The notes: generated from the letters alone by a model not told the origin. A stretch of 64,000 nucleotides of DNA from Myxococcota bacterium (GCA_046075485.1 JBJTQF010000129.1:1824-65823); one strand, 5' to 3'; counted from the stretch's first letter, positions 4,561 through 61,759 are shown. Made by a program: numbers and translations.

Positions 4561-4640
4561 GCGCGTGCGTGAGCGGACACACATCCCCTCACGAGCGCGT
4601 ACAGTCGCAGGCGTAGAGGGAACGGTCATCGGGAGGTGCT

Positions 4641-5750: not shown

Positions 5751-5761
5751 GGACGCCGACC

Positions 5762-8115: not shown

Positions 8116-8786
8116 TGCGCATTCTGCTGGTGGAAGACGACCCGCTGTTGGGTGATGGCATCCGCACGGGGCTCACGCAAGCGGGTTACGCGGTGGATTG
8201 GGTGCGAGATGGGGTTGAGGCTCAGCTCGCCCTCAAGACCGAGACCTATGCCGGGGTGGTGCTGGACTTAGGTTTGCCTCGCCGCTCGGGGCTGGAGGTG
8301 TTGGCGGAGCTGCGGGCTCGAGGGCTCACCGTTCCCGTGTTGATCTTAACCGCTCGAGACACCACCGCAGACAAGGTGAAGGGGCTCGATGCCGGTGCCG
8401 ATGACTATCTCATCAAGCCGTTTGAGCTCGATGAGCTGCTGGCGCGGCTTCGAGCGCTGCTTCGCCGGAGCTTTGGGCGGACTCAGCCGGTACTTCGGTG
8501 GGGGGAAGTGACCCTGGATCCAGCTTCGCACACGGTCTCACGCGCGGGGGTGCGGGTGGAGCTCTCGCCTCGCGAGTTCAGCGTGCTTCAGCAGCTCCTG
8601 GAGCAGCAGGGGCGCGTGCTCTCCAAAGCGCAGCTCGAGGAGGGGCTCTATGCCTGGGACTCGGAGGGTGTGGAGAGTAATGCCATTGAGGTCTACGTTC
8701 ATCATCTCCGCAAGAAGCTGGGGGCCGAGCTGATCGTGATGCTGAGGGGTGTGGGGTATCTGGTGCCTCGCCGGGAGGACGTTTGA
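8115..8786 (+). CDS. OmpR/PhoB-family response regulator (receiver + winged-helix)
   Basis: MRILLVEDDPLLGDGI, phospho-acceptor region VVLDLGLP, LTARD...DDYLIKPF, and a C-terminal trans_reg_C-like domain. ATGA overlap with the downstream histidine kinase. Confidence 0.85.
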   Translation: MRILLVEDDPLLGDGIRTGLTQAGYAVDWVRDGVEAQLALKTETYAGVVLDLGLPRRSGLEVLAELRARGLTVPVLILTARDTTADKVKGLDAGADDYLIKPFELDELLARLRALLRRSFGRTQPVLRWGEVTLDPASHTVSRAGVRVELSPREFSVLQQLLEQQGRVLSKAQLEEGLYAWDSEGVESNAIEVYVHHLRKKLGAELIVMLRGVGYLVPRREDV

Positions 8787-10292: not shown

Positions 10293-10299
10293 CGGGAGC

Positions 10300-10430
10300 T
10301 GAAGTCTCGTGTGTGCGGATGCGTGGGTGCGTGCGGATGCGTGTGTGCGGGTGGGTGCGTGTGGGTGGGTGCGTGTGGGTGGGTGCGTGCGAGTGCGTGC
10401 GGATGCGTGTGTGCGGATGCGTGGGTTTTA
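10300..10430. repeat. GT-rich imperfect microsatellite-like tandem repeat (units approx gtgcgtg(g/c)g(g/a)tgc; runs of gggtg) in the convergent intergenic region
   Basis: Seen in the sequence. Lies between the histidine kinase stop and the M23 peptidase stop. Both overlapping ORFs are low-complexity (His/Pro/Thr-rich) artefacts. Confidence 0.7.
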
Positions 10431-11633
10431 TTCGATGGCCATTGCTTCGGGGGGGACGCGGATCCACTGGATGGGGTTGACGGGTTTGCCGTTCTCGCGC
10501 ACTTCCAGATACAGGTAGGGGCCTTGAAAGGAGCCGGTATCGCCGACGAGGGCGATTTTTTCGCCGGTTTTGACTTTGTCTCCTGCGTTTTTGAGGAGCT
10601 TGGAGGCGTGTGCATAGATGGAGTGGTATCCGTCGCCGTGGTCGATGATCATGAGCAGGCCGTAACCTTTGAACCACTCGGCGAGTTTGACTTCGCCCTG
10701 GTAGATGGCTTTGATGTCGGCACCGGCGGGAGCGGTGATGTCGAGTCCTCGGTGTGTCTCGCTGACTTTCATGCCTTCGAGTTTGTAGCGGCCAAAGGCG
10801 CGGGTGACTTTTCCGGCTGGGACGGGATAGGGAAGGCGACCAATCTGTGCGGCGAAGCCAGACTTTTCGTCGGCTTTTTGCCGGAGGGGTGATGCGGGTT
10901 CGGTGGAGCTTTTTTCAGCCACGGGTTTGGGGGGAGGAGGTTCCATCTTCCGGGCGAGTGCTGCGGCGGCCAGCTCCAGCTCTTTGAGTCGGCGAGCGTC
11001 GATGCCTTTTTCGGTGCGCAGCTTCTCGAGCAGCTCTTTTTTGCGGAGCCGTTCGCCCTGGGTTTGGACCATTTGTTGTTCGACGTCGGTGGTGAGTGCT
11101 TGGACTTGCAGGCGTTCGGTCTCGAGCTGTTCTTTGATTTCTCCGGCGCGGGCGATGGCACGGCGTTGTTTCTGGACCAGGGCCATGTCTCGCTCGATGA
11201 TGATCTGGAGGTATTTCATGCGCTTGAGGATCTCGGTGCCGGATCCGCCGCCGAGCAGGGCCTGCATAAAACCTTTGTTGCTGTATTTGTAGAGGGCGCG
11301 GAGCCGCTGTTGGAGGAGGACGCGGCGTTCGACGAGGCCATCTTCCAGCTCGGTGCGTTCTTGCTCGAGGCTGGCGATGCGCTCTTCGACTTGTTTCTGG
11401 CGTGTGCGGGCTTGCTCGAGCTTTTGTTCTTGTTCTTGGATGGCGCGGTCGATGGCTTCGAGGGCGTCGAGTACGGAGTCTTCCTGTTTGAGGGTTTCCT
11501 CGAGCTTTTGACGCTGTTGTTTGAGGGCGTCGGGGGCGGCTTGGCCGAGCAGGAGGGGAAGGATGAGGCATAGGAGGAGCAGCCGCGTGATGCGGAGGGG
11601 GGTGAGGGGGCGGTGTGGGCGGAGAGCGGGCAC
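10428..11633 (-). CDS. EnvC-like murein hydrolase activator: N-terminal coiled coil + C-terminal M23 (LytM) peptidase domain
   Basis: Signal/TM at the N-terminus, long heptad coiled coil (QKLEETLKQ... LEQERTELED...). C-terminal M23 motifs HRGLDI, DHGDGYHSIYAH, GDTGSFQGPYLYLEV. Confidence 0.75.
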   Translation of the reverse strand: MPALRPHRPLTPLRITRLLLLCLILPLLLGQAAPDALKQQRQKLEETLKQEDSVLDALEAIDRAIQEQEQKLEQARTRQKQVEERIASLEQERTELEDGLVERRVLLQQRLRALYKYSNKGFMQALLGGGSGTEILKRMKYLQIIIERDMALVQKQRRAIARAGEIKEQLETERLQVQALTTDVEQQMVQTQGERLRKKELLEKLRTEKGIDARRLKELELAAAALARKMEPPPPKPVAEKSSTEPASPLRQKADEKSGFAAQIGRLPYPVPAGKVTRAFGRYKLEGMKVSETHRGLDITAPAGADIKAIYQGEVKLAEWFKGYGLLMIIDHGDGYHSIYAHASKLLKNAGDKVKTGEKIALVGDTGSFQGPYLYLEVRENGKPVNPIQWIRVPPEAMAIE

Positions 11634-43429: not shown

Positions 43430-44401
43430 ATGAAGACCTTTACGCGCATCAGCCTCTCATCTCTGAGCATGTTTATGTTGACCTCGCTTATGGCAAGCTG
43501 CTCGCCCGCAGAAGAGCAGGCGCTCGAGGTTCACACGTTTACCTCCGATGGCAGCGGATTTGATACCCACAGCTACTGGGTGGATACCGGACGGGAGGTG
43601 GTGGTCTTTGATGCTCAGTTTACCCCCGCTCTGGCGGAACAGATGCGCGCGGAGATCCGCAGTCTCACCGCGTCACCGGTGCGGTACGTGGTGGTGACCC
43701 ATCCCAATCCGGACAAGTTTAATGGGGCGAGTGTCTTCCAAGCAGAAGGGGCCACTCTGGTAGCCTCGTCGGAGACCGCTGCTGCCATGCCTGGGGTGCA
43801 TGCGTATAAAGAGGCGTACTTTACCGGGGTCGGGATGTTCGCGGAAGGCACTTACCCTGCCCTGCCCACAGTGGACATGACCTTCGACGGGACGCTTCGG
43901 CTGGAGCTCGACGCGGATGTGGACATCACACTGCATACGCTGAGTGGTCCCGGGGTCAGCAGCACGCAGACGGTGGCCCTCTTGCAGGGAGCGGTCATCG
44001 CAGGGGATCTATTTGCGAACCAGGTGCATGCCTGGCTGGAAGGTGGCATCGTCGAAGGCGCTCCGCGCCCCACCCTCGAGAGCTGGCAGGCGATGCTCGA
44101 TGAGGTGACACGCCTGTCTGACGCAGCGGCTCAGGTGTATCCCGGACGCGGTGAGCCGGCACCGCTGGAGGAGGCGAGCGCGGCTCAGCAGCTCTACCTG
44201 GAGACGATGGAGGGGCTGGTGGAGACGTATGTCAACACGCTCCCCGATGCGGCGGAGGCGCTGACGGGGGAGCAAGCCTCGACGCACTATGCCAACATCA
44301 CGGCGGAGGCAGAGAAGGCTTTTCCCACGTATGGGCTCTCGTATTTGGTGAGTTATGGGGTGTACGGGCTGGCGCTGCAAAAGGCCGGGGTGCTGGAGTA
44401 A
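43430..44401 (+). CDS. MBL-fold metallo-hydrolase lipoprotein
   Basis: Signal plus lipobox LMASCS. HxHxDK-like VVVTHPNPDKFNG and overall beta-lactamase-fold pattern. Divergent from the AraC regulator. Confidence 0.55.
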   Translation: MKTFTRISLSSLSMFMLTSLMASCSPAEEQALEVHTFTSDGSGFDTHSYWVDTGREVVVFDAQFTPALAEQMRAEIRSLTASPVRYVVVTHPNPDKFNGASVFQAEGATLVASSETAAAMPGVHAYKEAYFTGVGMFAEGTYPALPTVDMTFDGTLRLELDADVDITLHTLSGPGVSSTQTVALLQGAVIAGDLFANQVHAWLEGGIVEGAPRPTLESWQAMLDEVTRLSDAAAQVYPGRGEPAPLEEASAAQQLYLETMEGLVETYVNTLPDAAEALTGEQASTHYANITAEAEKAFPTYGLSYLVSYGVYGLALQKAGVLE

Positions 44402-44541: not shown

Positions 44542-45084
44542 TCATGTTTTGGAGGATGAGGACTCTAGCTTGATCGCCGCCAGCTTGTCCTGCAACGTTC
44601 CAAAAGACTGCGAAGGGGTGCCCTCCGTGTACGGCGCAGCGGAAGGTGCTCCAGTTCGACCCGCGACGGTATGATCCGCCCGAGCCTGCCCGGGCCGCTG
44701 TCCCGAGGGATAAGCGGTTCGTGTGCCTGCACCACCGCCATCACCTCCCGAAATCCTTGCTCGTTCTGTCTGTGTTGATTGCTGGGCGCGGGCCAGACGC
44801 CTGAGCCAGCCAAGCTGCCAGCGCAGGTCTGCTTCCGTGGGAGCAAGCGACTGATGTACTGTGTGCAGTAGCCAATCCAACACCTCCTTGTGAGCCTTTT
44901 CGATCTCCTCTCGCGCGGTGAAAGCCGTGTTCTCCAGGCGCTCGAGCAGCTCGACGGCGTCCTGGACACTTCCGCCCTGTGCCAGACATTCGAGCGCATC
45001 CTGCATAAAACGTTCATGGTTTGACGTGTTCATACCGGCGGCGGCCTGTTCTAACTTTTGGAGCGTGTGGGTCTTCGAATGCAC
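44542..45084 (-). CDS. Small alpha-helical protein, candidate Cas11 (Csm2-like small subunit); last gene of the cas operon
   Basis: GTG start with a GGGAGG RBS 8 nt upstream, 1 nt after the upstream RAMP stop. Predicted all-helical about 110-aa core plus a disordered Gly/Ala-rich tail. Assignment is by position and composition only. Confidence 0.35.
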   Translation of the reverse strand: MHSKTHTLQKLEQAAAGMNTSNHERFMQDALECLAQGGSVQDAVELLERLENTAFTAREEIEKAHKEVLDWLLHTVHQSLAPTEADLRWQLGWLRRLARAQQSTQTERARISGGDGGGAGTRTAYPSGQRPGQARADHTVAGRTGAPSAAPYTEGTPSQSFGTLQDKLAAIKLESSSSKT

Positions 45085-45085: not shown

Positions 45086-46150
45086 TCAACAACCTCCCTG
45101 ATGCAGCGTGATCAGTTGTTTTTCGCCCTCGTTCCATCGATCTTCCCAGCTCACAAAGTGGTCACGAAGCGTCGCACGCTCCATCGATACAAGGTGCCGT
45201 TGGTGATCGTAGAGCTCAATGGACTTCAGCTCCGGCTTGACACGACCGAAGCCGAGCGCACGACCTGCGCCGACCTTGAGATAGGAGGCAGGCTCACATC
45301 CCAGAGCGGTCAGCAGTCCCCCGAGCTCCTCCGGCAAGAGGTTCTGAAAGATCAGCGTGCCGGTGAGCCAGACGTTTTTTGGGATCACCTCGACCTTAAA
45401 GGGCTTGGGCTTTTTGGCATTCGGCGCAGGCGCAGGCGCAGAGACGGTGGCGGTGCTGTTCGAGAGGGCAAATTTACGCCCGTGCAGCGTGCTCACCTCA
45501 AAGTAGGCGTCGCTGTTGGGTGACGATTTTCTTGCAACCCCCAGATGGTGGAGGTTCGGGCTAAACTGAGCTGGGAGTTCCGCCAGCTCAGTGGTCTCGC
45601 CAGACGGTACTGCATACGCTTCTAAGACCAAGTCTGAGCAGGTGAGACGCCCTCGTTGACTCTCTCTGCCTGCACATCCAAAGAGCGCACACGCCGGACA
45701 CATCATTGCGGCGCGCGGATCCACTTGACAGCGATGGAAGGCCGCCCCCTGTATGGCACTCGGGAGGAGCTGCGCGTACCCCACGCGAGTGGTGGAGCGG
45801 ATCTTCTCTTTGTTATGGGCTTTGAGCTTGGTCACACTCACGCAGCTCTTGGTGAGGGCTTCATAACGAGCCCGGAGCAGTCCTTTTAAGCTGGAGCCCG
45901 GAATACCAAGCTGGCCTGCGATGCGCATGCAGCTCCGCACCACCTCGCCGTTGACCAGACGTTTCCCCCCAGAGCCGACATGAACCGGCTGCTCGGTCAA
46001 GAAACGGATCTCCAAACGCCCCGAGAGTGTGCCTTCGCAGCGTCGATCCAGCCTCGCCTCGCGACGCCGTTTACACGCCACATGGGGAGAAACCTGTACA
46101 AACTCATAGCCCTGTGGGATCTGCTTTTTGGAGAGAGTCGATGAGCTCAT
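45086..46150 (-). CDS. cas7: Type III Cas7-family RAMP protein (Csm3/Csm5/Cmr-like)
   Basis: G-rich loop GIPGSSLKGLLRARYEAL. Cys cluster CPACALFGC (RAMP zinc-finger/FG motif). Start overlaps the upstream gene stop (ATGA). Confidence 0.75.
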   Translation of the reverse strand: MSSSTLSKKQIPQGYEFVQVSPHVACKRRREARLDRRCEGTLSGRLEIRFLTEQPVHVGSGGKRLVNGEVVRSCMRIAGQLGIPGSSLKGLLRARYEALTKSCVSVTKLKAHNKEKIRSTTRVGYAQLLPSAIQGAAFHRCQVDPRAAMMCPACALFGCAGRESQRGRLTCSDLVLEAYAVPSGETTELAELPAQFSPNLHHLGVARKSSPNSDAYFEVSTLHGRKFALSNSTATVSAPAPAPNAKKPKPFKVEVIPKNVWLTGTLIFQNLLPEELGGLLTALGCEPASYLKVGAGRALGFGRVKPELKSIELYDHQRHLVSMERATLRDHFVSWEDRWNEGEKQLITLHQGGC

Positions 46151-47091
46151 GTCGCCCCTCCCAGTGTGTTGCGTGCATGTTCTAACCAGGTTTGAAGCTG
46201 CTCCGGTGAGGGCTCAAAGCGAACTGCCAGCCCTCGGCGAAGTCCTGGTTCACCGGTCAGCTCAGCGTCCGGCTCCAGACCGTAGTCCAGCCGTTCCCGC
46301 TCCGTCGCCAGCCTGCCCACGCCGGTTGCTGGAGCACCCTCTCGCCCAGACTGCTCATGCAGAAAGGACTCCACATGCACCCGCACGAAGCCCAGCCCTC
46401 GACTCTTGCCAGAGCCAAGCTGGACAAAACCGAGGTTGAGCTCTTCAAGGGCCGAGGCGACCAGCCCAAGCTGCCAGAGCTGATAGTTTTCAAAGCTCAG
46501 CTCGCCCCAGAAAGAGACCCCCACTGGCACCAGCTCTTGATCAAACGGACCATCGGCCACCGAACCCTTGATGCGGTCAATGGCCACATTCAGCCGAAGT
46601 TCCGTCTTGTTGGCCGCTTGGAGGTTGTGGAGCTGCGCCGCTGAGAGCGGCTCCTCTTGGTTCGGCCAGGGAAAGAAGTCTCGCACTCCGACTCGTCCCT
46701 TGAGGACCGTGGAGCCAAAAGTACGACATGCCGAACAGTGCATTTTGTAAACGTCAGAGGTGGAGAGGGGAGGCTCCTGCTTACGGCGCTTGTGAACACG
46801 AACACTACATGACAGTTCCTGTTCTTTCTTGTTTTCAAATGGATTACACGCCCCTTGCCGCGTCCCAAAAGACGACCCCCGAATGCTCGCTTCCACCGCC
46901 GCACGTAACACCCCCTTAAAGCTCGAGCCCGGGATGTAAACGGTCGAGCCATGCTGAAGGTGTCGCGTCCGAACACACACCAAGTCCGCCAGTGTGGGAT
47001 CCAAGCCTGCAAATCCCGCTCGAATGAGCAGCGGCGAAACCGTCTCGAGACGAAGGCGGAGCACCGCCCGATTATAGCTCTTACGAAACAT
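46147..47091 (-). CDS. cas7: Type III Cas7-family RAMP protein (Csm3/Cmr4-like)
   Basis: YIPGSSFKGVLRAAVEA G-rich loop. CSACRTFGS. C-terminal GSGKSRGLG glycine-rich segment. Confidence 0.8.
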   Translation of the reverse strand: MFRKSYNRAVLRLRLETVSPLLIRAGFAGLDPTLADLVCVRTRHLQHGSTVYIPGSSFKGVLRAAVEASIRGSSFGTRQGACNPFENKKEQELSCSVRVHKRRKQEPPLSTSDVYKMHCSACRTFGSTVLKGRVGVRDFFPWPNQEEPLSAAQLHNLQAANKTELRLNVAIDRIKGSVADGPFDQELVPVGVSFWGELSFENYQLWQLGLVASALEELNLGFVQLGSGKSRGLGFVRVHVESFLHEQSGREGAPATGVGRLATERERLDYGLEPDAELTGEPGLRRGLAVRFEPSPEQLQTWLEHARNTLGGAT

Positions 47092-47989
47092 GTTGAGCCT
47101 CCTTTACCACAAGCGCCAGTGCCTGACGATACTTCTCTAGGCGCTCCAAGAGGTCATCTCCGTTGAGTTTTTCGACACCTTTCCCTTCCAGTAGGCTGCG
47201 AGCATCCAGTCGTTCAAGCGAATCCCAGTGCAGAGAGACACGCCCCAACCCTCGCGAGGTGAAGCCCCCCAGCGCCGTAAACCCTTCGTGGAGCTGGTCA
47301 AAGCCCACGGTCAGCAGTCCCATCGCCCAGGGGGACGGATTGTCAACAAAGACCTCCAGGGTAAAACGAGCGCCTGGCGAGACCACCTCAAAGTCGTACT
47401 TCTGGCTGTTGTGAACAGTACGCAGATCCCGATCAATGGCCACACCATCCCGAAGTTCAATGGGAAGGCGACGACGGCCTCGCCATGCTCGCTCCTGAAG
47501 CAGCAGGTCCGAGAAGCGTACATGGCTGGCCACCGCCCGGGAGCCCAGGATACGACAGATGCAGCAATGCTGCTCCAGCTTCACGGCGTCGTGCCTGCCT
47601 CGTCGATGCCAGCCGCAGCTTCCAGTGCCGTTGCGCTGATCGGACTCCGCCTCGAGCAGCGGATCGCAGGCCCACAGCCCCGAGGTGGGAGGCAAGTCCG
47701 CACCACGAACCAGCGCCTCCAGGGTGGCACGAATGGCTCCCTTCAGGCTGCTACCCGGAATGAATGGGAACCCATCTGCATCTCGCATGACGGGCAGATC
47801 GACGGCGTTGAGCTCGTCGGAGTCTCCCCCGCCGATCCGAAGCCCGGTCTGAGCGACCAACGAGCCCCTGAGCACCAGTCGCTCTCGAAGTGTATGAAAG
47901 TTCGCCACTTCTTCGGCGGAGATCTCAGTGCGGTTCGGGGGGAATGGTGGAGCGGTGAGTGGCTCCTGCTCTGACCTCTCGATGCTCAT
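47081..47989 (-). CDS. cas7: Type III Cas7-family RAMP protein (Csm3/Cmr4/Cmr6-like)
   Basis: FIPGSSLKGAIRATLEAL. CCICRILGS. GGFTSRGLGRV glycine-rich segment. 11-nt overlap with the downstream gene. Confidence 0.8.
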   Translation of the reverse strand: MSIERSEQEPLTAPPFPPNRTEISAEEVANFHTLRERLVLRGSLVAQTGLRIGGGDSDELNAVDLPVMRDADGFPFIPGSSLKGAIRATLEALVRGADLPPTSGLWACDPLLEAESDQRNGTGSCGWHRRGRHDAVKLEQHCCICRILGSRAVASHVRFSDLLLQERAWRGRRRLPIELRDGVAIDRDLRTVHNSQKYDFEVVSPGARFTLEVFVDNPSPWAMGLLTVGFDQLHEGFTALGGFTSRGLGRVSLHWDSLERLDARSLLEGKGVEKLNGDDLLERLEKYRQALALVVKEAQHVS

Positions 47990-50289
47990 GAGCGTGATCC
48001 TCCCTGAGAGCGTGGAGCCGGGGTAGCGTCAGCGCGACGTGTCGCCGGGTGATCGGAGCGTCGGTCACCTGAATGTCGGTCTTTCTCCACCGCTTGATGG
48101 TAGGTGAAGGCCCGTGTGAGAAAGGTTGTATACAGTCTCCAGCCATAGACTCGTAAGGGGTCGTCGTCCTCTGCGATGCTATTCATGGCGGCTTCGGCCC
48201 CACCAATGACGGACTGGACCAGCTTGAGATTCCAGCCGGTGGTTCTTTCTCCCCGTCCTGCCTGATAGCGGAGGTAATTTTTAATCTCGGCCTCTACTTC
48301 TGCTTGGCTACAGATGCCGATGAGATGATTAAACTGGCTCTTATTGGGGGTTCCCTTGCGCTCTGAGTTGAACGCCTCCTCCATGACCCGCTCGGCCTCC
48401 ACGACCAAGTGCTTCCGATAAGGTCTGATGCGGCTGTCCAAGTCTGAGCCTTCCAGCGGGCTGGACTCCTGCTTGTCTGAGGAGAGGTGTCTGCTGTCCA
48501 TGTCGTCTCCTTGTGTAAAAAACGGATCGTAAATCAAGAGCTGACCAAAACCTTGATGACGTCTGTCACCACTTCCAGACGCCTCCAAGTGGGCCAGCCG
48601 TTCGAGCATGTTCTTTTCATCGAGCTGAGCAGGGAAACGCACCACAAAGACGGCTCCCGCTGCGACAGCCTGGACACAGGTCATCTGACCGCTGCGCTGG
48701 TCCCAGCTCCCTTCCCGACTAAAACGACGCTGAGAAAGGAAGAGCTCAGCGCCCAGGTCTTGAGCAATACTCTGCGCGCCATCTCCCCCATCCAGCGGGA
48801 TCAGCGGCGAGAGCAACGTGATGGGCACCAGTCGGCTGGACTGTTTTTCATCCAGCTTGAGCTTCTTCAACAGCTCACGCAGCTTTTGTTGGAACTGTTG
48901 ACGCCGCTCCACCAGCGGCTTCCAGCGGGGTGGCTCGAGCACCTCCACCTGAACCTGCCCCCAGCCGTGAGCACTTCCACGCCCCAGGGCCCGCAAGGAG
49001 TTCAACCCCTGGGCCAGTCGAACGCGGCTCTCCGCAGGAATCTGGCGGATGGAGCCTTCAAAAACAGCTCCCGGCTGAAGCTGCTCCTGACAAAAGAGCT
49101 GCTCGTGGGCTGCGGCATCGCGACCACGATCCAGCGACACTCGAGTACGGGTCTGAGTCGAGGGAGCACTGCGATGGGTACGCCAGCCGTGTGCGTTCCG
49201 CAGCGGCGCGCCACATGTACACGTCAAGCTCCGGATTCGGCTGAGGCGGTTCATCTGCTCGGGCTGCTCGATGAGGGTTGCCGCCATCAGCTCCAGCAGA
49301 GAATCCCGAAGTTTATGTGTTCGTCCCGCTTGTTTACAGAGCATGGCGGTGATCGGAAGGGGGCCCGGCACGCTGTGCGGAAAAACACACGGCTCGGTGG
49401 GGTGCAGAAAGCCAAAGTGAGCACCAGAATTTGCAACCAGTGCTTGAAATGCAGCATCCGCATTAGGATCAAGCGCTTGTGCATTCAGGATCTCCGCGAG
49501 GGTAAACCCAACGGCCCCTCGGAGTGTGCTGCCAGGCACATCCAGCCGACACTCGAGCAGGTTACGCTCACTGACGGGCGCTGCCAATGCAGTCGGCGAG
49601 CGTAGGGTCACGCGCACACTCACGGCGTCGGGAGAGGGAAGCGTAAGGTGCGGTTCAGATGGCGGGGAACACAGCTCGAGCTGGAGCTCGGCGCGTGCCA
49701 TGCCTCGGCTTCTTCCACTGCCGATATGGGTGGTCGCTCGAACGGCGGCCTTGAGATGAAACAGAAGCTGCTCATCCTTGAGGCACCCAGTCGCCTCAAA
49801 ACGGAGCTGGCGGCGAGAGGGCACCCGCTGCATGAAGAGTCGCTGCTCCTCTGCCGAACGAGACGCCCGAGAGCGCCCGAGACCAGGGCGCGTCATCCAG
49901 CCGGGCTCTGTCTGACAATGTGCATCATGCAGATCAAGGGCAGAAAAACGGAGGGATTGTGCGGGTAAATCTTCACGCTGGCCACCAAACAGACGGCAGG
50001 GCACACAAGGCCGTCCATTCTCGAGGGTACAGGGTTGAGCAGCTTGGAGGCTTCCGTAGGGGACACCGGTTCCGCCTGCGCAGACGGGAGCGGGCTGGTC
50101 GGGTGAGGCCATTCCTCTCAGCAGTGCCTCCAGGGATTGGCGGAGGGCTCCTCGGATGGCGGTGGCAGGGATAAAGGCCCTTCCATCCTGAGCGGCGTGC
50201 ATGATATGAACTCCAGCGGGGGCTGCGGACACACCGCCGATCAACAGTCCTCCACTGGGAAAGGTGAGCGTGAGCTTAAGCTGTTTCAT
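47986..50289 (-). CDS. Large (767 aa) fusion protein with two RAMP domains (Cas7/Cas5-like) and a C-terminal helical extension
   Basis: RAMP 1: FIPATAIRGALRQSLEALL, CVPCRLFGG, GSGRSRGMARAEL. RAMP 2: LDVPGSTLRGAVGFTLAE, LGRGSAHGWGQVQVEV. About 230-aa helical C-terminus. ATGA overlaps at both ends. Confidence 0.7.
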   Translation of the reverse strand: MKQLKLTLTFPSGGLLIGGVSAAPAGVHIMHAAQDGRAFIPATAIRGALRQSLEALLRGMASPDQPAPVCAGGTGVPYGSLQAAQPCTLENGRPCVPCRLFGGQREDLPAQSLRFSALDLHDAHCQTEPGWMTRPGLGRSRASRSAEEQRLFMQRVPSRRQLRFEATGCLKDEQLLFHLKAAVRATTHIGSGRSRGMARAELQLELCSPPSEPHLTLPSPDAVSVRVTLRSPTALAAPVSERNLLECRLDVPGSTLRGAVGFTLAEILNAQALDPNADAAFQALVANSGAHFGFLHPTEPCVFPHSVPGPLPITAMLCKQAGRTHKLRDSLLELMAATLIEQPEQMNRLSRIRSLTCTCGAPLRNAHGWRTHRSAPSTQTRTRVSLDRGRDAAAHEQLFCQEQLQPGAVFEGSIRQIPAESRVRLAQGLNSLRALGRGSAHGWGQVQVEVLEPPRWKPLVERRQQFQQKLRELLKKLKLDEKQSSRLVPITLLSPLIPLDGGDGAQSIAQDLGAELFLSQRRFSREGSWDQRSGQMTCVQAVAAGAVFVVRFPAQLDEKNMLERLAHLEASGSGDRRHQGFGQLLIYDPFFTQGDDMDSRHLSSDKQESSPLEGSDLDSRIRPYRKHLVVEAERVMEEAFNSERKGTPNKSQFNHLIGICSQAEVEAEIKNYLRYQAGRGERTTGWNLKLVQSVIGGAEAAMNSIAEDDDPLRVYGWRLYTTFLTRAFTYHQAVEKDRHSGDRRSDHPATRRADATPAPRSQGGSRS

Positions 50290-51818
50290 GGGATCTTCTC
50301 CAGGAGTCGAGCCAGGGTGAGCAGTCCAGGCTTGGGCATGTCGTCGATCATCACCTCTTTCTGCTTCCAGTCGGCGCCAATGCTGGCAAAATAGTGCTTC
50401 CAGCTCTCCGAGCGGGCCACCTGGTAGCGGAATTGGTTATGCGCTTCTTCCATCACCTCTGCTCGATGGATGTCTGCCAACCAGCTCCGTTGGGAGGACT
50501 GCACCCTCTTGAGGGCCTCTGCTCCGATGCGGGTCTGTTTCCAGTCATCGGCATCCAGGGAGAATGGATGTCCGTTGCGGTAGAGGTCCAGTGTTTGTGC
50601 TTCGATGCGGAGCTCTCCTGCGGTCATCAGTGCCACCTCCAACCCGCTGCGCCAGCCTCCTTCGCGGCATCCTTGTTTAGCGTGGTCCTCGAGCTGATGT
50701 GCCAAGCTCAGCAGGCGGGAAGCGGGAAAGGCACCGTTGGCGATGAGCAATCCGACGCCCAGCCCTGCTGCTTTCAGTGTGTTTTTTGCTCCGGTCTCTT
50801 CCAAGACGCTGTATTTACCCACAGAACTTAGAATCTCTGCTGCGTCTGTCAGTCCTTCTTCAATGGTTTGAGTCAGACATAGCACGTAGGTCAGACTGTC
50901 TTTGGGTGCGAGGAAGGCTCTCACATCGTCGCCTCCAGAGGCCACCGAGATGAGGGCATTCCCAACGGCGGCAGCCGCTTTTGTTTGTGCGCCGGCAAAG
51001 ATCTCTCCGACAAGCGCGGACACCGTGGCACACAACTCCAGCGTCGAGAGGCTCGAGAACAACTGTCCCAGGTTATTGCCATCCGCTGAGACCACAGCCA
51101 CCTGCTGATCTGGCGAGAGCTCGATCAGCGAGCCCTGTTTGACGGACTTCCCGCTGAGCCGAATGAAGGCGTCACAGCGAGGACAGATGAGCTCATGGCG
51201 CGCGTCGGGGCGCGGAGAGGGGACAGTCCCTTTGAAGGCATGGCAATCTGCGCAGGCGTCTGCTCGTGAGGTGGGAAGCTCACCGCCGGGAACGGTGGCT
51301 CCATCTTTGGCCAGCTCAAGCCGCGTCCGCAACAGCTCCAGGCAGGATTTGGCGCTTTTCGTATCGTAGGGGGACGAGGCTGTCGCCAGGACGCCCCCGA
51401 AGCTCTGCTCAAAGAAGGTGTGCTTGAGCTCATGCTGAAGCTGTTTCGCTTTGTCCTCTGACGAAGCGAGCAGCATGCCACGGCCTCCGGCGGCGAAGAT
51501 GGCCCCTGCTCTCTTCCGTTGTTGTGTGTCAAACTGCTTCAGCCACTGGCTGGCACCGTACATGGCAATCGGGCGACTATTGGCGGCAATGAGAGACTGA
51601 ATTCCATTGACATCGTAGGCCACCAGCCACGGACGCGCTCCGGCTTGCTGGATGGCCTTACGTGTGTTGGCCTCCGTCTTCTTGCAGAGGGATTTGAGAT
51701 CTGAGCTCAAGCATGCTCCTCCTGTTGAGGGTCGTGATGGTCCCGCAGTGTGGCCTGACGGGTATCTCGATGGAGGGATTGCACGCTGAGTCGGAAGAAG
51801 CTGACACCTGCTCGTCAC
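50286..51818 (-). CDS. cas10: Cas10-like large subunit lacking an HD domain (palm/cyclase domains with GGDD; treble-clef zinc finger)
   Basis: LVAYDVNGIQSL (palm 1), CADCHAF...ICPRCD zinc finger, VVSADGNNLGQLF and ISVASGGDDV (palm 2 GGDD), helical C-terminal domain. No H..HD motif at the N-terminus. The start is uncertain (GTG at 51818, no good RBS). Confidence 0.65.
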   Translation of the reverse strand: MTSRCQLLPTQRAIPPSRYPSGHTAGPSRPSTGGACLSSDLKSLCKKTEANTRKAIQQAGARPWLVAYDVNGIQSLIAANSRPIAMYGASQWLKQFDTQQRKRAGAIFAAGGRGMLLASSEDKAKQLQHELKHTFFEQSFGGVLATASSPYDTKSAKSCLELLRTRLELAKDGATVPGGELPTSRADACADCHAFKGTVPSPRPDARHELICPRCDAFIRLSGKSVKQGSLIELSPDQQVAVVSADGNNLGQLFSSLSTLELCATVSALVGEIFAGAQTKAAAAVGNALISVASGGDDVRAFLAPKDSLTYVLCLTQTIEEGLTDAAEILSSVGKYSVLEETGAKNTLKAAGLGVGLLIANGAFPASRLLSLAHQLEDHAKQGCREGGWRSGLEVALMTAGELRIEAQTLDLYRNGHPFSLDADDWKQTRIGAEALKRVQSSQRSWLADIHRAEVMEEAHNQFRYQVARSESWKHYFASIGADWKQKEVMIDDMPKPGLLTLARLLEKIP

Positions 51819-52531: not shown

Positions 52532-52777
52532 CCTCCGCTCGCCGGACTTTCATCCGGTGGATGCTCGAGCGGATGCGCTCGCTGAAAGCCGGAGCCTCCC
52601 CCCGGTCGAAAAAGGTTGATTTCCGACCCGTGTTTAAACATCCTCCCCTGTCATACCAAGGCACTCGGTTCTTTCCAACGCCGAGCACCGCCTCACACCT
52701 GCCTGCTTCGAGGAGCCCCCACGGAGCAGGCCCCCACGGAGCAGGCCCCCACGTTCGTCATGTGATCAGGAGGCTTT

Positions 52778-54296: not shown

Positions 54297-55295
54297 CTAC
54301 TGCTCCACCTGTTGCAAAGGTGCGATCCCCCAAAACATCACCACCTCCTCACCATCCTCACGCGCTGCCGCCTGAGCCTCCAGCCGATCCAGCTCCTGAA
54401 CCGTCACATCTCGATGCCAGGGAATGAAGGTCGCCAAGTCCGCCTTCGAGATCCGCGCAATCACCGCTCGCTGCCCAAGCTTCCGCTCAGGACGATCCAG
54501 CACCGACTTCATATAGTCCCGAATTTTACGAAACAGGTCCAAGTGCCCGGCGCGAAAGCGTTCCTTCGGATGGCTCAGCACCAGAGAATGCACCCCCGGA
54601 CGGCTCGACCAGCGCGCAGGCACACGCCGTCTTGCCTCCGTCACCTCCAAGTACCCCGCCCGTTGCAGAAAAACAAGCTGCGCCTGGAGCCGCTCCAGCC
54701 CGAGCACCTTCAGCTCCGGCGACTTGAGGAGCTGCTCGGCACTCATCGGGCGCGCGTGGAGCCGCTGCATGATGTGCAGATGCAGCAGATATTCCTGCTC
54801 CAGCTCCGAGAGCGGCTTCTGCCAGTCCTTCAAGTCAGAAGAGGCAAGCTGGTAACGAAGGTGATGACTGCCCTCTCGCCGAATCAGCCTCCGCGCTTCC
54901 AAGAGCGTCAGACCAATCTGGATGTCCTCCAGCTCGGTGCTTTTGTTAAACGCCTCAAGCAGCGCCCGCTCGGTCTGAGCCCCGGACTCCAGCACGGTGA
55001 TGAGCTTTCGCAGAATGGCCCCCTGCTGCACACTGGCCGCCTCCTTTTGTAAGGTCCGGCTCGCCTGCGCCAAGAGCTTGACCGCCCCTTCACTGTATTC
55101 AAGCTGAATGCTCATCTCTCGCTGCGTGCGATGTTCGGCCTCCAGCTCCCGAAACATCGCCACCTGAAGCAAGCGCACCAGGTTTTTGCCAGAGCCTTGA
55201 TTGGAGCGCAGCGCCACATACACCGCAACCCGCAAGATCTCTATGATGAGCGCCTGCCAATACGTAGAAGGTTGATCGGTCAGCACTTTGGGCAT
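54297..55295 (-). CDS. Hypothetical protein
   Basis: 332-aa ORF, helical, no recognised motif. Confidence 0.35.
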   Translation of the reverse strand: MPKVLTDQPSTYWQALIIEILRVAVYVALRSNQGSGKNLVRLLQVAMFRELEAEHRTQREMSIQLEYSEGAVKLLAQASRTLQKEAASVQQGAILRKLITVLESGAQTERALLEAFNKSTELEDIQIGLTLLEARRLIRREGSHHLRYQLASSDLKDWQKPLSELEQEYLLHLHIMQRLHARPMSAEQLLKSPELKVLGLERLQAQLVFLQRAGYLEVTEARRRVPARWSSRPGVHSLVLSHPKERFRAGHLDLFRKIRDYMKSVLDRPERKLGQRAVIARISKADLATFIPWHRDVTVQELDRLEAQAAAREDGEEVVMFWGIAPLQQVEQ

Positions 55296-56862: not shown

Positions 56863-58068
56863 TTAGGGATCTCCTCCCGCTCGCGCAGCGATCTCACTCA
56901 GGAGCGCATGGTCTGGGATCATATAGGGCTCCGGCGGGGTGGTGATGCCCTTCTCGCGCAGGCGTGCGTGGAGCTGCGTCGCATGACTCACCCCCAGCGC
57001 CTGAACCTGCACCCCCTGGCGTTTATGAATCAGCTCGGCAATGGAGGGGGTATCATCGGTGCTCTCGATCACCTCACCTTGAACATCGCGTGTTTTCAGC
57101 ACATTTTCGGCACCGTCCGAGATGAGCACCACCAGCCGCTCATGCGCAGGGTTGCCGTGACGCACCAGCAGCTCCCCCGCATAAACCAGGGCCCGCCCGA
57201 TGTGGGTCATCCGGCCATTTTCCGCCCTCAAGAGGCTGACCGCATCCTGAAACTGACGCACCACCCCCGGCGAGACCCCCGCATTCAGAGGCAGCAGCCC
57301 TCGCGTGCGCGGAAAGACCTGCTGACATTGATCGGTAAAGGCCACCAGCGCAAAACTCGACGCCCTGCCTGGGGTTTTGGTACGCTGCTCGAGCAGGCGC
57401 AGCAGCGACCGCTGCACCGCATCCATCCGGGTGATGCGCCGACGACCCTCGTGCAGCCCGTACCCCTCGTCGAGGGTCATATCACGAATGTTCATCGAGC
57501 CGCTACAGTCCGCCAAGATCACCACGTCGATGCCCACATGCTGACGAGAGGTAAAGAGCTTCACCCGCGTGTTTGTCCCCACTCGAAAGATTGTTGACAT
57601 CTCATTTGGTGCAGGCTTTTGCTGTCTGACCCGGTACAACACATCGTCGAGGGTGATCAGGAGCCCCTCGCGTGTGCTCGCCGCATCGGTCGTAAAGAGC
57701 AGGTGGGGCAGCTCTCGGCTCTCGTTGAGACACGCCAGGGCCTTGTCGCTGGACAGCTCGATCACCGGCTCCAACCACAGCTCTTCGAGCATCACCACCG
57801 GATTTTCTTGCCAGGTGAGCTGCCAGCGGACCCGCTCCTGCTGCAAGCTGAGGGTCTCGGCCAGACGCGCGCTGAGGGCCACCAAGCCGGGCGGGATGCG
57901 GGGATGAGGCAAGATCTGGACGGGCTCGGCACGGTTCGCGTCCAGGTTGTGCAAAATCCCCACCACCTGTTCCTGGAGCACCTGCGGCGAGAGATAGAGG
58001 CGATTTCCTTGCACCATGCCATTCTGATGCATCACACATAACAGTTGTTCGCTTGAGCTTAGTCTCAT
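56863..58068 (-). CDS. VWA-domain protein
   Basis: MIDAS motif VVILADCSGSM and downstream VVLISDGAEN. 4-nt overlap with the upstream gene. Confidence 0.55.
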   Translation of the reverse strand: MRLSSSEQLLCVMHQNGMVQGNRLYLSPQVLQEQVVGILHNLDANRAEPVQILPHPRIPPGLVALSARLAETLSLQQERVRWQLTWQENPVVMLEELWLEPVIELSSDKALACLNESRELPHLLFTTDAASTREGLLITLDDVLYRVRQQKPAPNEMSTIFRVGTNTRVKLFTSRQHVGIDVVILADCSGSMNIRDMTLDEGYGLHEGRRRITRMDAVQRSLLRLLEQRTKTPGRASSFALVAFTDQCQQVFPRTRGLLPLNAGVSPGVVRQFQDAVSLLRAENGRMTHIGRALVYAGELLVRHGNPAHERLVVLISDGAENVLKTRDVQGEVIESTDDTPSIAELIHKRQGVQVQALGVSHATQLHARLREKGITTPPEPYMIPDHALLSEIAARAGGDP

Positions 58069-59300
58069 AAGCTGTCCTTCTCCCAGCGCAGCGACACACC
58101 CAGCGTCCTTTCCAGGCGTGGTTTGGCCTGCTCCACGGCGCCCCGCATTGGCTTGGGCAGGGAGATAAAGAGCAGGTTCAGCGACGGTTTATAGTCCGTG
58201 GCCTGGATTTCTCGGGCGATCTCAGGTTTTCCCAAGCTCTGGAGGGCCTGCGAGAGCTGCTCTTGCAAGCGCACACGCCGGAGCTCCGACGAATCCACCG
58301 GGGTCTGATCGATGCGCTTGAGGGTCTCCTCCAGCCGGGTGCGGAGCTGCACCTCAAAGGGCGACTTTCCGAGCAGCCGTTGCTGCAACCCGGCATAGAG
58401 GGCTCGAATCTGCGCTTGAGAAGGCGTGCGTTGGAGCTGCTTGATGATGACATGGCGTGTTCCCATATAACCGGGGATTCTGAGCTGCTCGTGTGGAGGC
58501 ATGCGCCGGTTACGCAGGATCGTTCCGGCGGCGAGCTGGTAGATCAGAGCGTCTGGGCTCAAGGTGGACAAGTTCCGGTGTGTGGCGCAGAGCATCAGCC
58601 CTTCCCGCTCGGGGCCGTAGATCTTCCATTGGCGGGCGTGATCAGGACAGACCCGCTGACCACAGGGCTGATGGGTGGAGGACTCCACAAACTCACACGA
58701 GAAGGTGCCGAGCTGTGGACACGGGGTCACCGTACAGCGTGGAAATAACGCATCATAACAGTCTGCGCAATAGCGGCGACTGGGATCATTGGGATGAGAC
58801 GTCCCGTGCAGTACACAGATCGCCTGCTGACAGGGGCCGTCACACCAGCTCGTGGCCCGCCCTGAGCAAGTGCGGCAGGTGGGCACATGCGCGGGACAGA
58901 AGGCATCAAGCGCCCCATCCAATAAGGTGGCGTGCTGAAAACACACCTCCACGTTATCTTTTTGCTCATCCCGGCAGGTCACACACTCAAAGGGTGCATA
59001 CTGCTTGGCCTCTGGCGGACAGGCGGAGCAGAAGTGGGTGAGTGAAGGTCTCTCCAGAATCGACCGCAGGGCCAGGGGGGTACTCGGCTGGAGCGGCTGG
59101 AGAGAGGCCGGGGCCCGAATGATCTCTAAGCGAATCACCCCGGAGCCGCTCTTCATCTGGATGAGCTGTCCGGTCTGGAGCGTTTTTCCCATCAGGCTGG
59201 ACTCAATGGCGGTCCAGAGCCGCTGAAAGGAGGCGGGCTCGAGGGCGGGCACACGAGACTGACGAAGATCCATCACCAGGTCAATGCAGTCCATGACCAC
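58065..59300 (-). CDS. Cys-rich hypothetical protein (multiple CxxC pairs, putative zinc-ribbon-rich)
   Basis: More than 25 Cys in about 200 aa (CSACPP, CVTCRD, CPAHVPTCRTCSG, CDGPC, CADCYD, CPDH). 20-nt overlap with the upstream gene. Confidence 0.4.
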   Translation of the reverse strand: MVMDCIDLVMDLRQSRVPALEPASFQRLWTAIESSLMGKTLQTGQLIQMKSGSGVIRLEIIRAPASLQPLQPSTPLALRSILERPSLTHFCSACPPEAKQYAPFECVTCRDEQKDNVEVCFQHATLLDGALDAFCPAHVPTCRTCSGRATSWCDGPCQQAICVLHGTSHPNDPSRRYCADCYDALFPRCTVTPCPQLGTFSCEFVESSTHQPCGQRVCPDHARQWKIYGPEREGLMLCATHRNLSTLSPDALIYQLAAGTILRNRRMPPHEQLRIPGYMGTRHVIIKQLQRTPSQAQIRALYAGLQQRLLGKSPFEVQLRTRLEETLKRIDQTPVDSSELRRVRLQEQLSQALQSLGKPEIAREIQATDYKPSLNLLFISLPKPMRGAVEQAKPRLERTLGVSLRWEKDSL

Positions 59301-60681
59301 CTCCGTGACGATGCGGCACTTCGTCTTGTGGGGCTGACGATGTTCGTTCCCCAGCGCCGGGCGTCTCTGAGGCGCTGGAAGGTGCAGCCCCCTCGTGTGT
59401 GGTCGTGGCGGCTCCGGCGGGTTGCAGGTGTGCCTCCCACTGCATCATGATCACGGCATACGCGGCTGGATTTTTCATCCGGTTGTAGTCGGCCAGGGAT
59501 GACCATCCTCCTGTTTGCTTCGTCACACGCGCGGCAGCCCCGAGGGGTTCGGCTCCCCCTGCGGCGGGTGCATCCGTCGAAGGCCCCAGCTCGAGCCGCT
59601 GAGTGCGCACCAGGGTTGCCAGACATGCCGGAATCTGGGGAGAAGCCTTATGAAAGTGGCGGCGGAAGAGCTCATTTTCCGACAAGATCCCCTCCAGTCC
59701 TAAGCTGTTGAGGGCCGCCCCGGAGCTCAGCGGGGCCAGCTCCTCCGGGGTCACACCCAGAACATGCAGCTCTCCCACCATGCTGAGCAGCAGGCGCTCC
59801 AGCCGCTCCGCGCTCTTACTCCGCTCGCCGTTGACCGAAATGAGGGGCGCTTGAACCCCTCGAGCGATGGTCTGGGTGCGATTTTTCTCCAGTGTCCGCT
59901 GAGAGATGCCTTCCACGCGCGCGCCCATGCGGGCCATGCGTCGCCCTTGCAGCAGCAGGGCCTGATACAAGATGCTGTGGACACGAGAGGTTGAGAGCAG
60001 GGTCTGTGCATCGGTCAGATGAATACGAAGCTGTGGCAGCGGCTCACCCTGCTCTTGACGGAGCTGGAGGTCGAGGCTTGCCAAGTCGGAGACACCCCGG
60101 TGACGTTTGAGGTGCGCCAGCACCCGGTCGAGATAGGCAGGCTCGCAGCAGCTCAGATAGGGAGACGCCGAAAAACCGGACTGCTCGAGGCGAACAGAGC
60201 CAGCGGGTTGAACGCCCGCCATACCACTTCGACTGCGCCCAGAGATTGCAATCAGCAGGTCTGATTCTTGACGAATGTGATTGTGAATGACCTCCCGCTC
60301 GATGTCATCGTATACCTCCAGCGCGTGCTCATCTTCGCAGCAGAGCCGAGCCCAGGGGATGCCTTCTCGGGGGGCCACCGCAGCGGGATAGAGCTGAGCG
60401 CCTTGTTGCTCCAGCCAAGCAGCCAGCAGCCGGGTGGCCTCCTGGAGCGCCTGAAAGCAGGTCTCCCGCGCCTCATAGCTGTGCAGCCAGCGTAAGCCGG
60501 TGTCGAGCCATACGGGAGTGGCCAGCTCGTGCGGCCCCGGCGGAACGCGCAGGGTGAGGTTGTCTGGAAACTTCGGCAGGTGCTCCGGGCGGGTTAAGAA
60601 TTGAAAATGAGGTGCCACCACCACCCAGCCTTTGCGTAGGCGCTGACGAGAGGGTCCAATTCGATAGAGCTTCACCAGCAT
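59281..60681 (-). CDS. Hypothetical protein (first gene of the four-gene operon)
   Basis: 466-aa ORF with good coding character. No motif confidently recognised. Confidence 0.35.
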   Translation of the reverse strand: MLVKLYRIGPSRQRLRKGWVVVAPHFQFLTRPEHLPKFPDNLTLRVPPGPHELATPVWLDTGLRWLHSYEARETCFQALQEATRLLAAWLEQQGAQLYPAAVAPREGIPWARLCCEDEHALEVYDDIEREVIHNHIRQESDLLIAISGRSRSGMAGVQPAGSVRLEQSGFSASPYLSCCEPAYLDRVLAHLKRHRGVSDLASLDLQLRQEQGEPLPQLRIHLTDAQTLLSTSRVHSILYQALLLQGRRMARMGARVEGISQRTLEKNRTQTIARGVQAPLISVNGERSKSAERLERLLLSMVGELHVLGVTPEELAPLSSGAALNSLGLEGILSENELFRRHFHKASPQIPACLATLVRTQRLELGPSTDAPAAGGAEPLGAAARVTKQTGGWSSLADYNRMKNPAAYAVIMMQWEAHLQPAGAATTTHEGAAPSSASETPGAGERTSSAPQDEVPHRHGGGHGLH

Positions 60682-60723
60682 GATGCAGAGATCTCCTGAT
60701 GGTATGATATGTGGGAGGGCCCT

Positions 60724-61759
60724 TTACAACGGCTTGTCACTCGACGGGGCCTGAAGTCCGTCGAGATCAAAATCGAGGTCGATGTCTAAGGTCATGGCAT
60801 TTGCATGGACCTGAGCAGGAGGTGCTACCGTCGGAGGTGCCACCATGTGACTGATTTGAGTGGGGCCTTCCTCCATCCAAGCGGAGGCCCCAAAGAAGGA
60901 CGTTACCGTGGGTGCTGGAGCCTCCGTTGCTGCTGAAGGCATCGTCGCTGGAGCCACCGTCGCTGGAGCCACCGTCGCTGAGGGCAGCGTCGCTGAAGGC
61001 ATCGCTGCTGAAGCCGTCGCTGCCGGAGCAGACAGCAGGACGTCTTCTTCGGACAAATAAGCGGGGATATGTTCTTTCTGGGGGGCTGCTGAGGACTTCG
61101 CCGAGTCCTCTTCCGTCAAATAAGTGGGGATGTGCTCTCCTTTTTTCGGTGGAGCTGCTTCCACATGGCCGGTCAAGGGGGAGACGGGTGGCCGTTTGAC
61201 GGCCTTTTCTCGAACGGGAGGTGCGGAGCGGGGGGCATACTCCATCACAAACGGAATGGCGGGGGTTGCCAGTACAAAAAACTGACCCAAGAGCACACAT
61301 CCGAAGGCCACCAGTCCCGTCCCTGCTGCGGCACCTGCACTGGCGAACTCCTGAACGGAGGCGCCCTCACCGATGAGCGCGGCCACAAATCCCCCCAGAC
61401 CGCCTCCGAGAAGGCCGCCGGTGAGCACGCTGATCAGCAGCAGGAGCTCCGCCGCCGTGGAGAGCCAGCTCGCCACCGCCCCCCCCGATGGAGGCTACCA
61501 CCAGCCACGCGAGCACACCCGGGGCTCCCTTCGGCTCCGCCCACACCATAATCTGATACATATAATAGAGGAGGTGTCCCAGCAGCAGGGCCCCCACCCC
61601 GTAGCGGCTCCAGCCCATCCAGTGGGGAAGCTCGGGGGTGGCTTCGACTGTGACATCCGCGCTCGCCCCTCTCTCTTCTGAAGGCGTCGGACTCGGGCGC
61701 GCCACACCGCTACTCATCTCGGCTGGAAGGCTCCCTGCTGACCAGAAACCCCATTCCAT
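60724..61759 (-). CDS. Membrane protein with a Pro/Ala/Thr-rich repeat region; frame broken at a G8 tract (complement of 61479-61486)
   Basis: ORF 61367..61759 has an N-terminal TM segment (LLLGHLLYYMYQIMVWA, then VLAWLVVASIGGGG). ORF 60724..61476 has more TM helices plus repeats. They join across the homopolymer in different frames. 6 x 15-bp tandem repeats at 60941-61030 encode the (S/P)ATV(A/L)P repeats. Confidence 0.4.

Follow-up and report, generated by a model that had tools for sequence, protein, structure and literature searches.

The 64,000-nucleotide (nt) stretch of Myxococcota bacterium DNA analyzed here (GCA_046075485.1 JBJTQF010000129.1:1824-65823; hereafter the window) encodes on its minus strand, at 50286..51710, a compact, HD-less Cas10, the large subunit of a type III-D-like complex specified by a six-gene operon. 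We consider it probable that this complex performs RNA-guided cleavage of target RNA and synthesizes cyclic oligoadenylate (cOA), with both its guide and its effector provided in trans. In such a mechanism, the complex would be loaded with a CRISPR RNA (crRNA) that is made elsewhere in the genome, and the loaded complex would bind complementary RNA. The bound RNA would be cleaved through at least one Cas7 active-site aspartate, and the Cas10 Palm pair would be switched on to polymerize ATP into cOA, most likely cyclic triadenylate (cA3). Guide supply and a cOA-responsive effector would have to come from other loci because a CRISPR array, cas6, and a recognizable sensor-effector gene are all missing from the window.

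Profile searches and structure prediction identify the product of 50286..51710 (474 amino acids [aa] plus a stop codon) as a genuine Cas10, as a preliminary description of this stretch had proposed from its palm arrangement. The protein matches Pfam PF22335 (Cas10/Cmr2 second palm) above the gathering cut-off (E 1e-10), and sub-threshold NCBIfam matches place Csm1 over Palm1 and the zinc-finger part and Cmr2 over Palm2. Eleven PADLOC Cas10 models match the protein (best E 5.5e-20), several of which are short (370-462 positions) and two of which are labelled Cas10d. A profile of the family compared with the PDB met the type III-Dv Cas10 of Synechocystis (8s9t_C) at E 9e-8, with weaker matches to the Cas10 proteins of types III-A and III-B and of Sulfolobus III-D. 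An AlphaFold2 (AF2) model of the 474-aa protein, built on the family alignment, has a predicted local distance difference test score (pLDDT) of 90.6 and a predicted template modeling score (pTM) of 0.90. When this model was compared with the PDB using Foldseek, the top 50 matches were Cas10 chains throughout, the best again being 8s9t_C (E 3e-15, query-normalized template modeling [TM] score 0.72).

The predicted fold opens with a single helix (aa 2-23); Palm1 (about aa 26-115) comes next and is joined through a zinc-finger linker to Palm2 (about aa 200-361), after which the chain ends in a helical C-terminal region (about aa 385-474). The translation contains WLVAYDVNGIQ, AGGGRG, CADC-x19-CPRC, VVSADGNNLG, and SGGDDVRAF, among them every motif on which the preliminary description had relied. 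Palm1 (aa 26-115; 51366..51635, minus strand), delimited from the strand-helix pattern of the AF2 model, carries YDVNGIQ and AGGGRG, which are invariant or nearly so across the family, and aligns with the Palm1 segment 'yvGGGhayLL' of the L. lactis Cas10. The zinc finger (CADC...CPRC; 51174..51254, minus strand) is the CxxC...CxxC treble clef previously noted between the palm motifs, and its four cysteines (C153, C156, C176, and C179) are invariant in 27 homologues. Palm2 (aa 200-361; 50628..51113, minus strand), defined by PF22335 and by profile alignment to Palm2 of 8s9t_C, contains the predicted metal- and phosphate-binding motif DGNNLG (51066-51083, minus strand, coordinates verified) and the GGDD catalytic motif (aa 259-262; 50925..50936, minus strand), which is invariant in 27/27 family members and aligns with the GGDD of the Synechocystis III-Dv Cas10. 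Both profile (PF22335) and fold (Foldseek) place the GGDD region in a palm domain, and the alternative that it belongs to some other domain was not seen. The C-terminal domain (aa 385-474; 50289..50558, minus strand) is all-helical in the AF2 model and Cas11-like, corresponding to D4, and its helices (387-472) fall inside the full-length structural match to Cas10 chains. Thus, the features by which a Cas10 is recognized, namely tandem Palm domains, a treble-clef zinc finger, GGDD with an upstream Asp, a Cas11-like C-terminus, and adjoining Cas5, Cas7, and Cas11 genes, are all present. Furthermore, the predicted cyclase is likely to be active, because neither D210-G211-N212 nor GGDD nor any of the four zinc-finger cysteines varies within the family, including the effector-less clade to which the window belongs.

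The start of the gene had been left unclear, with a GTG lacking a ribosome-binding site (RBS) as the provisional choice and a product of about 510 aa. The open reading frame (ORF) 50286..51818 is indeed present on the minus strand, 51818 being its GTG end, and the protein is indeed compact, but the 510-aa length does not hold. An in-frame TTG occurs at 51710, and the 36 codons from the GTG to this point have a counterpart in no homologue. The TTG, which yields the 474-aa product, follows an AGGAGG (51718..51723, minus strand, read directly from the sequence) at a spacing of 7 nt, its position in the family alignment is the N-terminal start of all 26 homologues, and its product is identical end to end to NCBI protein P0001, publicly annotated as 'MAG: Cas10/Cmr2 second palm domain-containing protein [Myxococcota bacterium]'. 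For these reasons the GTG start is almost certainly wrong and the TTG at 51710 the true one, which settles the earlier uncertainty.

The N-terminal HD nuclease domain, a canonical feature of III-A and III-B Cas10 proteins on which membership in the family does not depend, is absent from the window protein. The type III-B Cas10 of B. fragilis is also HD-less. As the preliminary description held, there is no room for such a domain: the 474 aa contain no HD dipeptide, a single helix precedes Palm1 in the AF2 model, and only 296 nt separate the cas10 start codon from the stop codon of the upstream NlpC/P60-like gene. An upstream HD domain masked by a frameshift was considered and ruled out by the 36 homologue-free codons, the start point shared by the whole family, and the 296-nt spacer. 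The 27 relatives, without exception, are 458-521 aa long and align from their first residues, with GGDD invariant. An exhaustive profile search of 1.84 billion representatives recovered about 60 clusters (50% identity) whose full-length members span 447-520 aa, and beyond these it reached a broader set of 500-650-aa Cas10 proteins. Because the whole family is equally short and starts at the same point, the alignments indicate that the HD-less form is the native state of a sizeable family and results from neither truncation nor frameshift. HD domains occur in only 3% of type III-D Cas10s (PMC11229360), and an HD-less, cyclase-positive Cas10 is the norm in this subtype; the headline feature of the gene is already known biology.

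The genes of the translationally coupled operon all lie on the minus strand, cas10 first, and are joined by ATGA overlaps (at three junctions) or by gaps of about one base, with RBSs present. The second gene (47986..50289, minus strand), whose ATG overlaps the cas10 stop codon (ATGA), encodes a cas7-cas5(csx10)-cas11 fusion of 767 aa. This protein matches Pfam RAMPs and Cas_Cmr3, NCBIfam Csx7 at aa 34-200 (within a Cas7 part of about aa 15-200), NCBIfam Csx10 (TIGR02674) at aa 222-591 (E 1.5e-25; its 90 bits fall short of the equivalog cut-off of 177), and PADLOC Cas5_IIId (E 4.7e-27), and has at about aa 617-737 a Csm2/Cas11 segment recognized by PADLOC; its matches among PDB sequences, both weak, are the III-D2 Cas7-5 chain 9wxh_C (E 0.004) and the III-Dv chain 8s9t_A, 'Cas7-Cas5-Cas11'. 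Three Cas7 paralogues follow. The first (302 aa; 47081..47989, minus strand), which has an ATGA overlap with the preceding gene, is Csx7/Csm3-like and matches NCBIfam TIGR02581 above cut-off (E 5.9e-47), and its D63 (NAVDLPV) aligns with the Asp in GGIDNPV of T. onnurineus Csm3, which we take to be catalytic. The second (314 aa; 46147..47091, minus strand) matches Pfam RAMPs (E 2.5e-22) and PADLOC Csm3 (E 3.9e-34). The third (354 aa; 45086..46150, minus strand) matches NCBIfam TIGR03986 (E 1.1e-28, model positions 338-532) and PADLOC Csm3 (E 4.1e-31), is similar to the Cas7 found at the C-terminus of TIGR03986 and gRAMP proteins, and by eye has no Asp at the catalytic-loop position. The operon therefore contains, counting the one inside the fusion, four different Cas7 domains, in keeping with the several distinct Cas7 paralogues of type III-D, and the Csx10 and Cas5_IIId matches provide the Csx10-type Cas5 of that subtype. 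Csx19, a component of III-D1 and III-Dv, was recognized in none of the operon genes. By these sequence matches the operon composition is type III-D-like and identical to none of III-D1, III-Dv, or III-D2.

The last gene of the operon (44542..45084, minus strand), identified by its homology to the last operon gene of related loci, encodes a conserved 180-aa protein with a helical N-domain and a low-complexity Gly/Ser/Pro-rich tail, for which no match was found in Pfam, NCBIfam, PADLOC, or PDB sequences. Members of its family are the last gene in most related operons for which enough downstream sequence is available. In the sister clade of operons described below, the orthologues (e.g., L001 13704-14504 and P0176-P0198) are 260-290 aa long and possess an extra alpha/beta C-domain. 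The AF2 model of a full-length orthologue (pLDDT 85.6) has a five-helix N-domain and the alpha/beta C-domain, and Foldseek found no match to it in the PDB. Two identities tried for this protein gained no support. By hhalign it is not Cas11-like, and for an assignment as Csx19 its profile met no PDB chain, although 8S9T is in the database, and PADLOC was blank; the fold predicted for the orthologue, helical plus alpha/beta, also differs from the beta-rich Csx19.

No CRISPR array was found in the 64 kb with TRF, a direct-repeat finder, a k-mer chain script, or Rfam; the k-mer chain script did recover arrays in seven related loci. When up to 3 mismatches were allowed, nothing resembling the 3' ends of the sister-clade repeats was present in the window. 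Genes were sought with Pfam on plausible (non-shadow) ORFs of at least 200 aa, with PADLOC on the window, with tblastn using 21 accessory and flanking proteins from related loci as queries, and with six profile hidden Markov models (HMMs) of relatives' accessory proteins against 578 six-frame ORFs. No cas6, cas1, or cas2 gene was found in the window, and no CARF, SAVED, CHAT, TIR, NucC, or CorA gene, which extends to the full 64 kb the earlier statement that no CARF or SAVED gene lies within 12 kb of cas10. In the survey of Hoikkala et al., 133 of 1113 type III loci are effector-less and encode a cyclase-positive, nuclease-deficient Cas10, and such loci are 2.57 times likelier in genomes that have multiple type III loci, from which signaling between loci was inferred (PMC11229360). 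The effector-less, HD-less, cyclase-positive loci of that survey, which covered complete genomes, have the same configuration as the window. Given these loci and the prevalence of HD-less cyclases in type III-D, the unusualness that the preliminary description implied is overstated.

Relatives of the operon bear on the likely nucleotide product. Members of a sister clade, whose Cas10 proteins are 33-41% identical to that of the window, occur in Sorangium sp. So ce388 and So ce1099, Polyangium sp. 15x6, Paraliomyxa miuraensis, and many metagenome-assembled genomes (MAGs) of Kofleriaceae and Polyangia; the examples given here are drawn from loci L001-L029. The order of genes in this clade is cas10, cas7-cas5, a separate cas11, three cas7, and the gene for the 260-290-aa last protein. 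Where the flanks of a sister locus are sufficiently covered, cas10 is in most cases adjoined by a SAVED gene, either that of a SAVED-CHAT protease or another, and the genes downstream of the operon often include one for a TIR protein, for EAD1-SAVED, or for a SAVED protein of 575 aa. A second CHAT protease and an extracytoplasmic function (ECF) sigma factor are present in three sister loci (L001, L002, and L006), and cas6 is likewise found in three (L001, L004, and L005). Seven sister loci contain arrays, four of them with full repeat consensi of 31-36 nt, and the readable repeats end in ATTGAAGC, ATTGAGAC, or a near variant, one of them in reverse orientation.

In Haliangium ochraceum, cA3 drives a proteolytic cascade in which SAVED-CHAT is the cA3-activated component (bioRxiv 10.1101/2023.06.23.546230). 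Because the sister operons are flanked by a SAVED-CHAT set like that of this cascade, strong guilt by association argues that the Cas10 family makes cOA, probably cA3. The SAVED effectors of related loci also strengthen the earlier prediction of cOA synthesis by the window Cas10, which by this analogy is a reasonable one. The H. ochraceum system resides in a myxobacterial host and combines SAVED-CHAT with a second caspase-like protease and a sigma factor, with cyclases of the CBASS (cyclic-oligonucleotide-based antiphage signaling system) type nearby. This accessory set resembles the flanks of the sister-clade operons, but none of its accessory genes is in the window, and its effector complex is Cmr1-6 (III-B) rather than III-D-like. 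SMODS (CD-NTase-like) genes recur beside the SAVED effectors of sister loci (L005 136-969, L006 5318-6238, and L009 17398-18207, and likewise in L010, L015, L018, L019, and L029), which by comparison suggests CBASS/type III hybrid neighborhoods like that of H. ochraceum. Additionally, upstream of SAVED-CHAT at L001 618-5578, L002 2480-7406, and L006 939-5228 are genes for a large CHAT protease (765-823 aa, one copy having faint TPR matches) and an ECF sigma factor, together with small genes; this set is reminiscent of the PCaspase/PCc-sigma module, although the effector complex it accompanies is III-D-like and not III-B.

Among solved complexes, the III-Dv Cas10 of Synechocystis sp. PCC 6803 (8S9T_C) is the best match to the window Cas10 by both sequence profile and structure. 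Like the window protein, it is N-terminally truncated with no functional HD domain, has two Palm domains with GGDD and a helical C-terminus that mimics the small subunit, and partners with a Cas7-Cas5-Cas11 fusion, a III-Dv trait that the window shares. The Synechocystis III-Dv Cas10 keeps its GGDD and makes cOA that activates Csx1, and a Palm catalytic mutant (D308A/D309A in the plasmid list) loses cOA signaling; the III-Dv complex also includes Csx19 (PMC11026444). The two proteins differ in size (575 aa in Synechocystis, 474 aa in the window) and share about 15% identity. In Synechocystis, the operon includes Cas7-2x, Csx19, and Cas7-insertion, and is accompanied by adaptation genes, cas6-2a, an array of 56 spacers, and two CARF effectors, Csm6 and Csx1; in the window, the three Cas7 genes are unfused, the 180-aa subunit is unrelated, and no Csx19, array, cas6, or effector is detectable. 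Neither the Cas7-2x double fusion nor the Cas7-insertion of III-Dv is found in the window, where the Cas7 genes of 302, 314, and 354 aa are separate, and the adjacent CRISPR array and cas6 of type III-D systems are missing from the 64 kb. The III-D2 Cas10 (Gammaproteobacteria bacterium HyVt-522; 9WXH-9WXJ), a minimal Palm1-linker-Palm2-C-terminal domain (CTD) enzyme that makes S-adenosylmethionine-AMP (SAM-AMP) (PMC13294483), is similar to the window protein in its minimal architecture, its lack of an HD domain, and its Cas7-Cas5 fusion partner. It differs in having a GGDE motif, in making SAM-AMP2 in addition to SAM-AMP, in its CorA effector and toxin-antitoxin module, and in a Cas7x3 fusion with single-site cleavage; in the window, the Cas7 genes are unfused, the motif is GGDD, and no CorA gene was found.

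The window belongs to a clade of its own, the Cas10 proteins of which are 52-57% identical, together with L003, L031/L032/L033, L034, and a 747-bp contig of Byssovorax cruenta, a species that carries a close relative, L025. A metagenome scan for further members returned sister-clade loci only. Within the clade, no variation is seen in GGDD, in the DGN motif, or in the four cysteines of the zinc finger; the last operon protein is shortened to 180-190 aa, and Cas11 is fused to Cas7-Cas5 (767 aa in the window, 809 aa in L003, and 772 aa in L031). The six-gene architecture of the window is kept in L003 at 50-75% identity. The loss of the C-domain from the last protein of the window coincides with the loss of SAVED effectors. 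In several sister loci (L002 12594-13019, L012, L015, L016, L022, and L024), cas11 is in frame with cas7-cas5; tblastn high-scoring segment pairs (HSPs), compared with window 47986-48489, cross the boundary between the two sister genes, and in L002 scarcely more than a stop codon lies between them. On this evidence, the fusion in the window clade looks like a simple loss of a stop codon, and because Cas11 is separate in the sister clade, the fusion probably arose independently of the one in Synechocystis III-Dv.

Several points weigh against a complex that signals in trans. Identity to any solved Cas10 is no more than about 15% by Foldseek. Cas10 proteins with GGDD as well as those with GGDE can make SAM-AMP instead of cOA (PMC13294483). 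The array, the Cas6, and the effector that would act in trans in the window organism are assumed. Unrelated housekeeping genes lie upstream of cas10 in the window, L003, and L031 (an NlpC/P60 gene, an unassigned ORF, and a FabH-like gene, respectively), and in the members with downstream sequence, the window and L003, there is no SAVED gene or cas6 downstream of the operon. As judged from these unrelated upstream genes and the missing downstream partners, the clade could have abandoned signaling.

Each of three alternative explanations is less likely than a III-D-like complex that signals in trans. If signaling has been abandoned, the operon would provide defense or regulation through Cas7 cutting alone, with Cas10 kept as a structural subunit whose cyclase has no receiver in its own clade. 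The alignment of Cas7 D63 with the presumed catalytic Asp of Csm3 is consistent with this explanation, as are the lack of a sensor or effector in the 64 kb and on contigs L003 and L031, and the shortened last protein, which lacks the C-terminal domain present wherever SAVED effectors are present. The invariance of GGDD, DGN, and the zinc finger among five clade members just 52-57% identical would, however, be hard to explain without selection on catalysis, and we regard a purely RNA-cleaving function as unlikely. An orphan effector module that has lost its array, cas6, and effectors, is non-functional, and is heading toward pseudogenes could account for the lack of these genes, and of any adaptation gene, in the 64 kb. 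It could also account for the failure to detect a sigma-70-like promoter upstream of cas10, although a simple promoter scan of this kind is uninformative for Myxococcota. Such decay appears quite improbable given that none of the six ORFs is disrupted, that they retain RBSs and coupling through ATGA junctions, and that the bare architecture, including a fusion of 767-809 aa, is kept in independent metagenomic relatives at 50-75% identity, which argues for long-term purifying selection. Finally, production by the Palm pair of SAM-AMP, SAM-AMP2, or another non-cOA nucleotide, as in the B. fragilis III-B system and in III-D2, where the Cas10 is similarly minimal (PMC13294483), is the least probable of the three, since the window and about 30 related loci all lack a gene for CorA, NrN, or a SAM lyase (CorA being checked by Pfam in the window matches and in the called genes of eight related loci with Pfam listings), the related loci carry SAVED-domain effectors, which are sensors of cyclic oligonucleotides, the window motif is GGDD and not the GGDE of III-D2, and the nearest solved relative is the cOA-producing III-Dv Cas10.

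The genes surrounding the operon, which include those for an AraC regulator, an MBL-fold protein, an NlpC/P60 hydrolase, a GH5 cellulase, MoxR/VWA proteins, and a glucose-1-phosphate adenylyltransferase-like protein, are ordinary chromosomal genes, and no tRNA gene was found in the window. A three-gene PrkA/DUF444/SpoVR cluster at 2479-7387 (plus strand) is followed by a two-component system at 8115-10057; this context places the type III module among housekeeping genes, with no obvious defense island. The MBL-fold gene at 43430-44401, considered as a ring nuclease, was set aside as unrelated to the MBL protein of L002, which has weak Apyc1 similarity; by eye, both proteins open with a lipoprotein-type signal sequence. 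At 54297-55295 (minus strand), on the upstream side of the operon, a 332-aa ORF with no family-library match has a very weak tblastn similarity (E 0.08) to an AbiEii-family gene of L002. At 56863-61476 (minus strand), four same-strand ORFs encode a VWA-domain protein of 401 aa and then proteins of 411, 466, and 250 aa that have no family matches, the 250-aa ORF carrying a 15-nt coding tandem repeat at 60914-61029. The GH5 cellulase gene and the NlpC/P60-like gene are divergently oriented, and in the interval between them, close upstream of the former, is a perfect 15-nt tandem repeat, GCCCCCACGGAGCAG (2.6 copies, 52715-52753). Directly downstream of an M23 peptidase gene (10428-11633, minus strand), about 10 GTGCGTGCGG-like units form a degenerate, GT-rich tandem array (10295-10440).

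An HD-less GGDD Cas10 is by now textbook biology, characterized structurally and biochemically in III-Dv and III-D2. What is mildly new in the window clade is the Cas11 fusion, the loss of all cis partners, and the truncation of the seventh subunit (the last protein of the operon), as well as that subunit itself, which, with a fold that has no PDB match, is the sole component with real discovery potential. A more speculative proposal, to which we assign a small chance of being correct, is that the window, L003, L031, L034, and probably Byssovorax cruenta represent a distinct, stripped-down derivative of the myxobacterial III-D lineage, a dedicated sensor module acting in trans, which would rely on borrowed crRNAs and supply cOA to SAVED effectors, CBASS-type or other, encoded elsewhere in the genome. 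Such a derivative may have fused Cas11, cut the seventh subunit down to its helical domain, and shed the array, cas6, and SAVED genes, all while keeping the cyclase site. If this were so, it would be through the C-domain, lost from the seventh protein in the window clade, that the sister-clade complex is coupled to its cis effectors. The locus adds to type III-D diversity in Myxococcota a well-conserved and very compact Cas10 of 474 aa. The window clade and its SAVED-linked sister clade form a natural pair without and with cis effectors, one that could serve to test trans signaling by effector-less type III loci.

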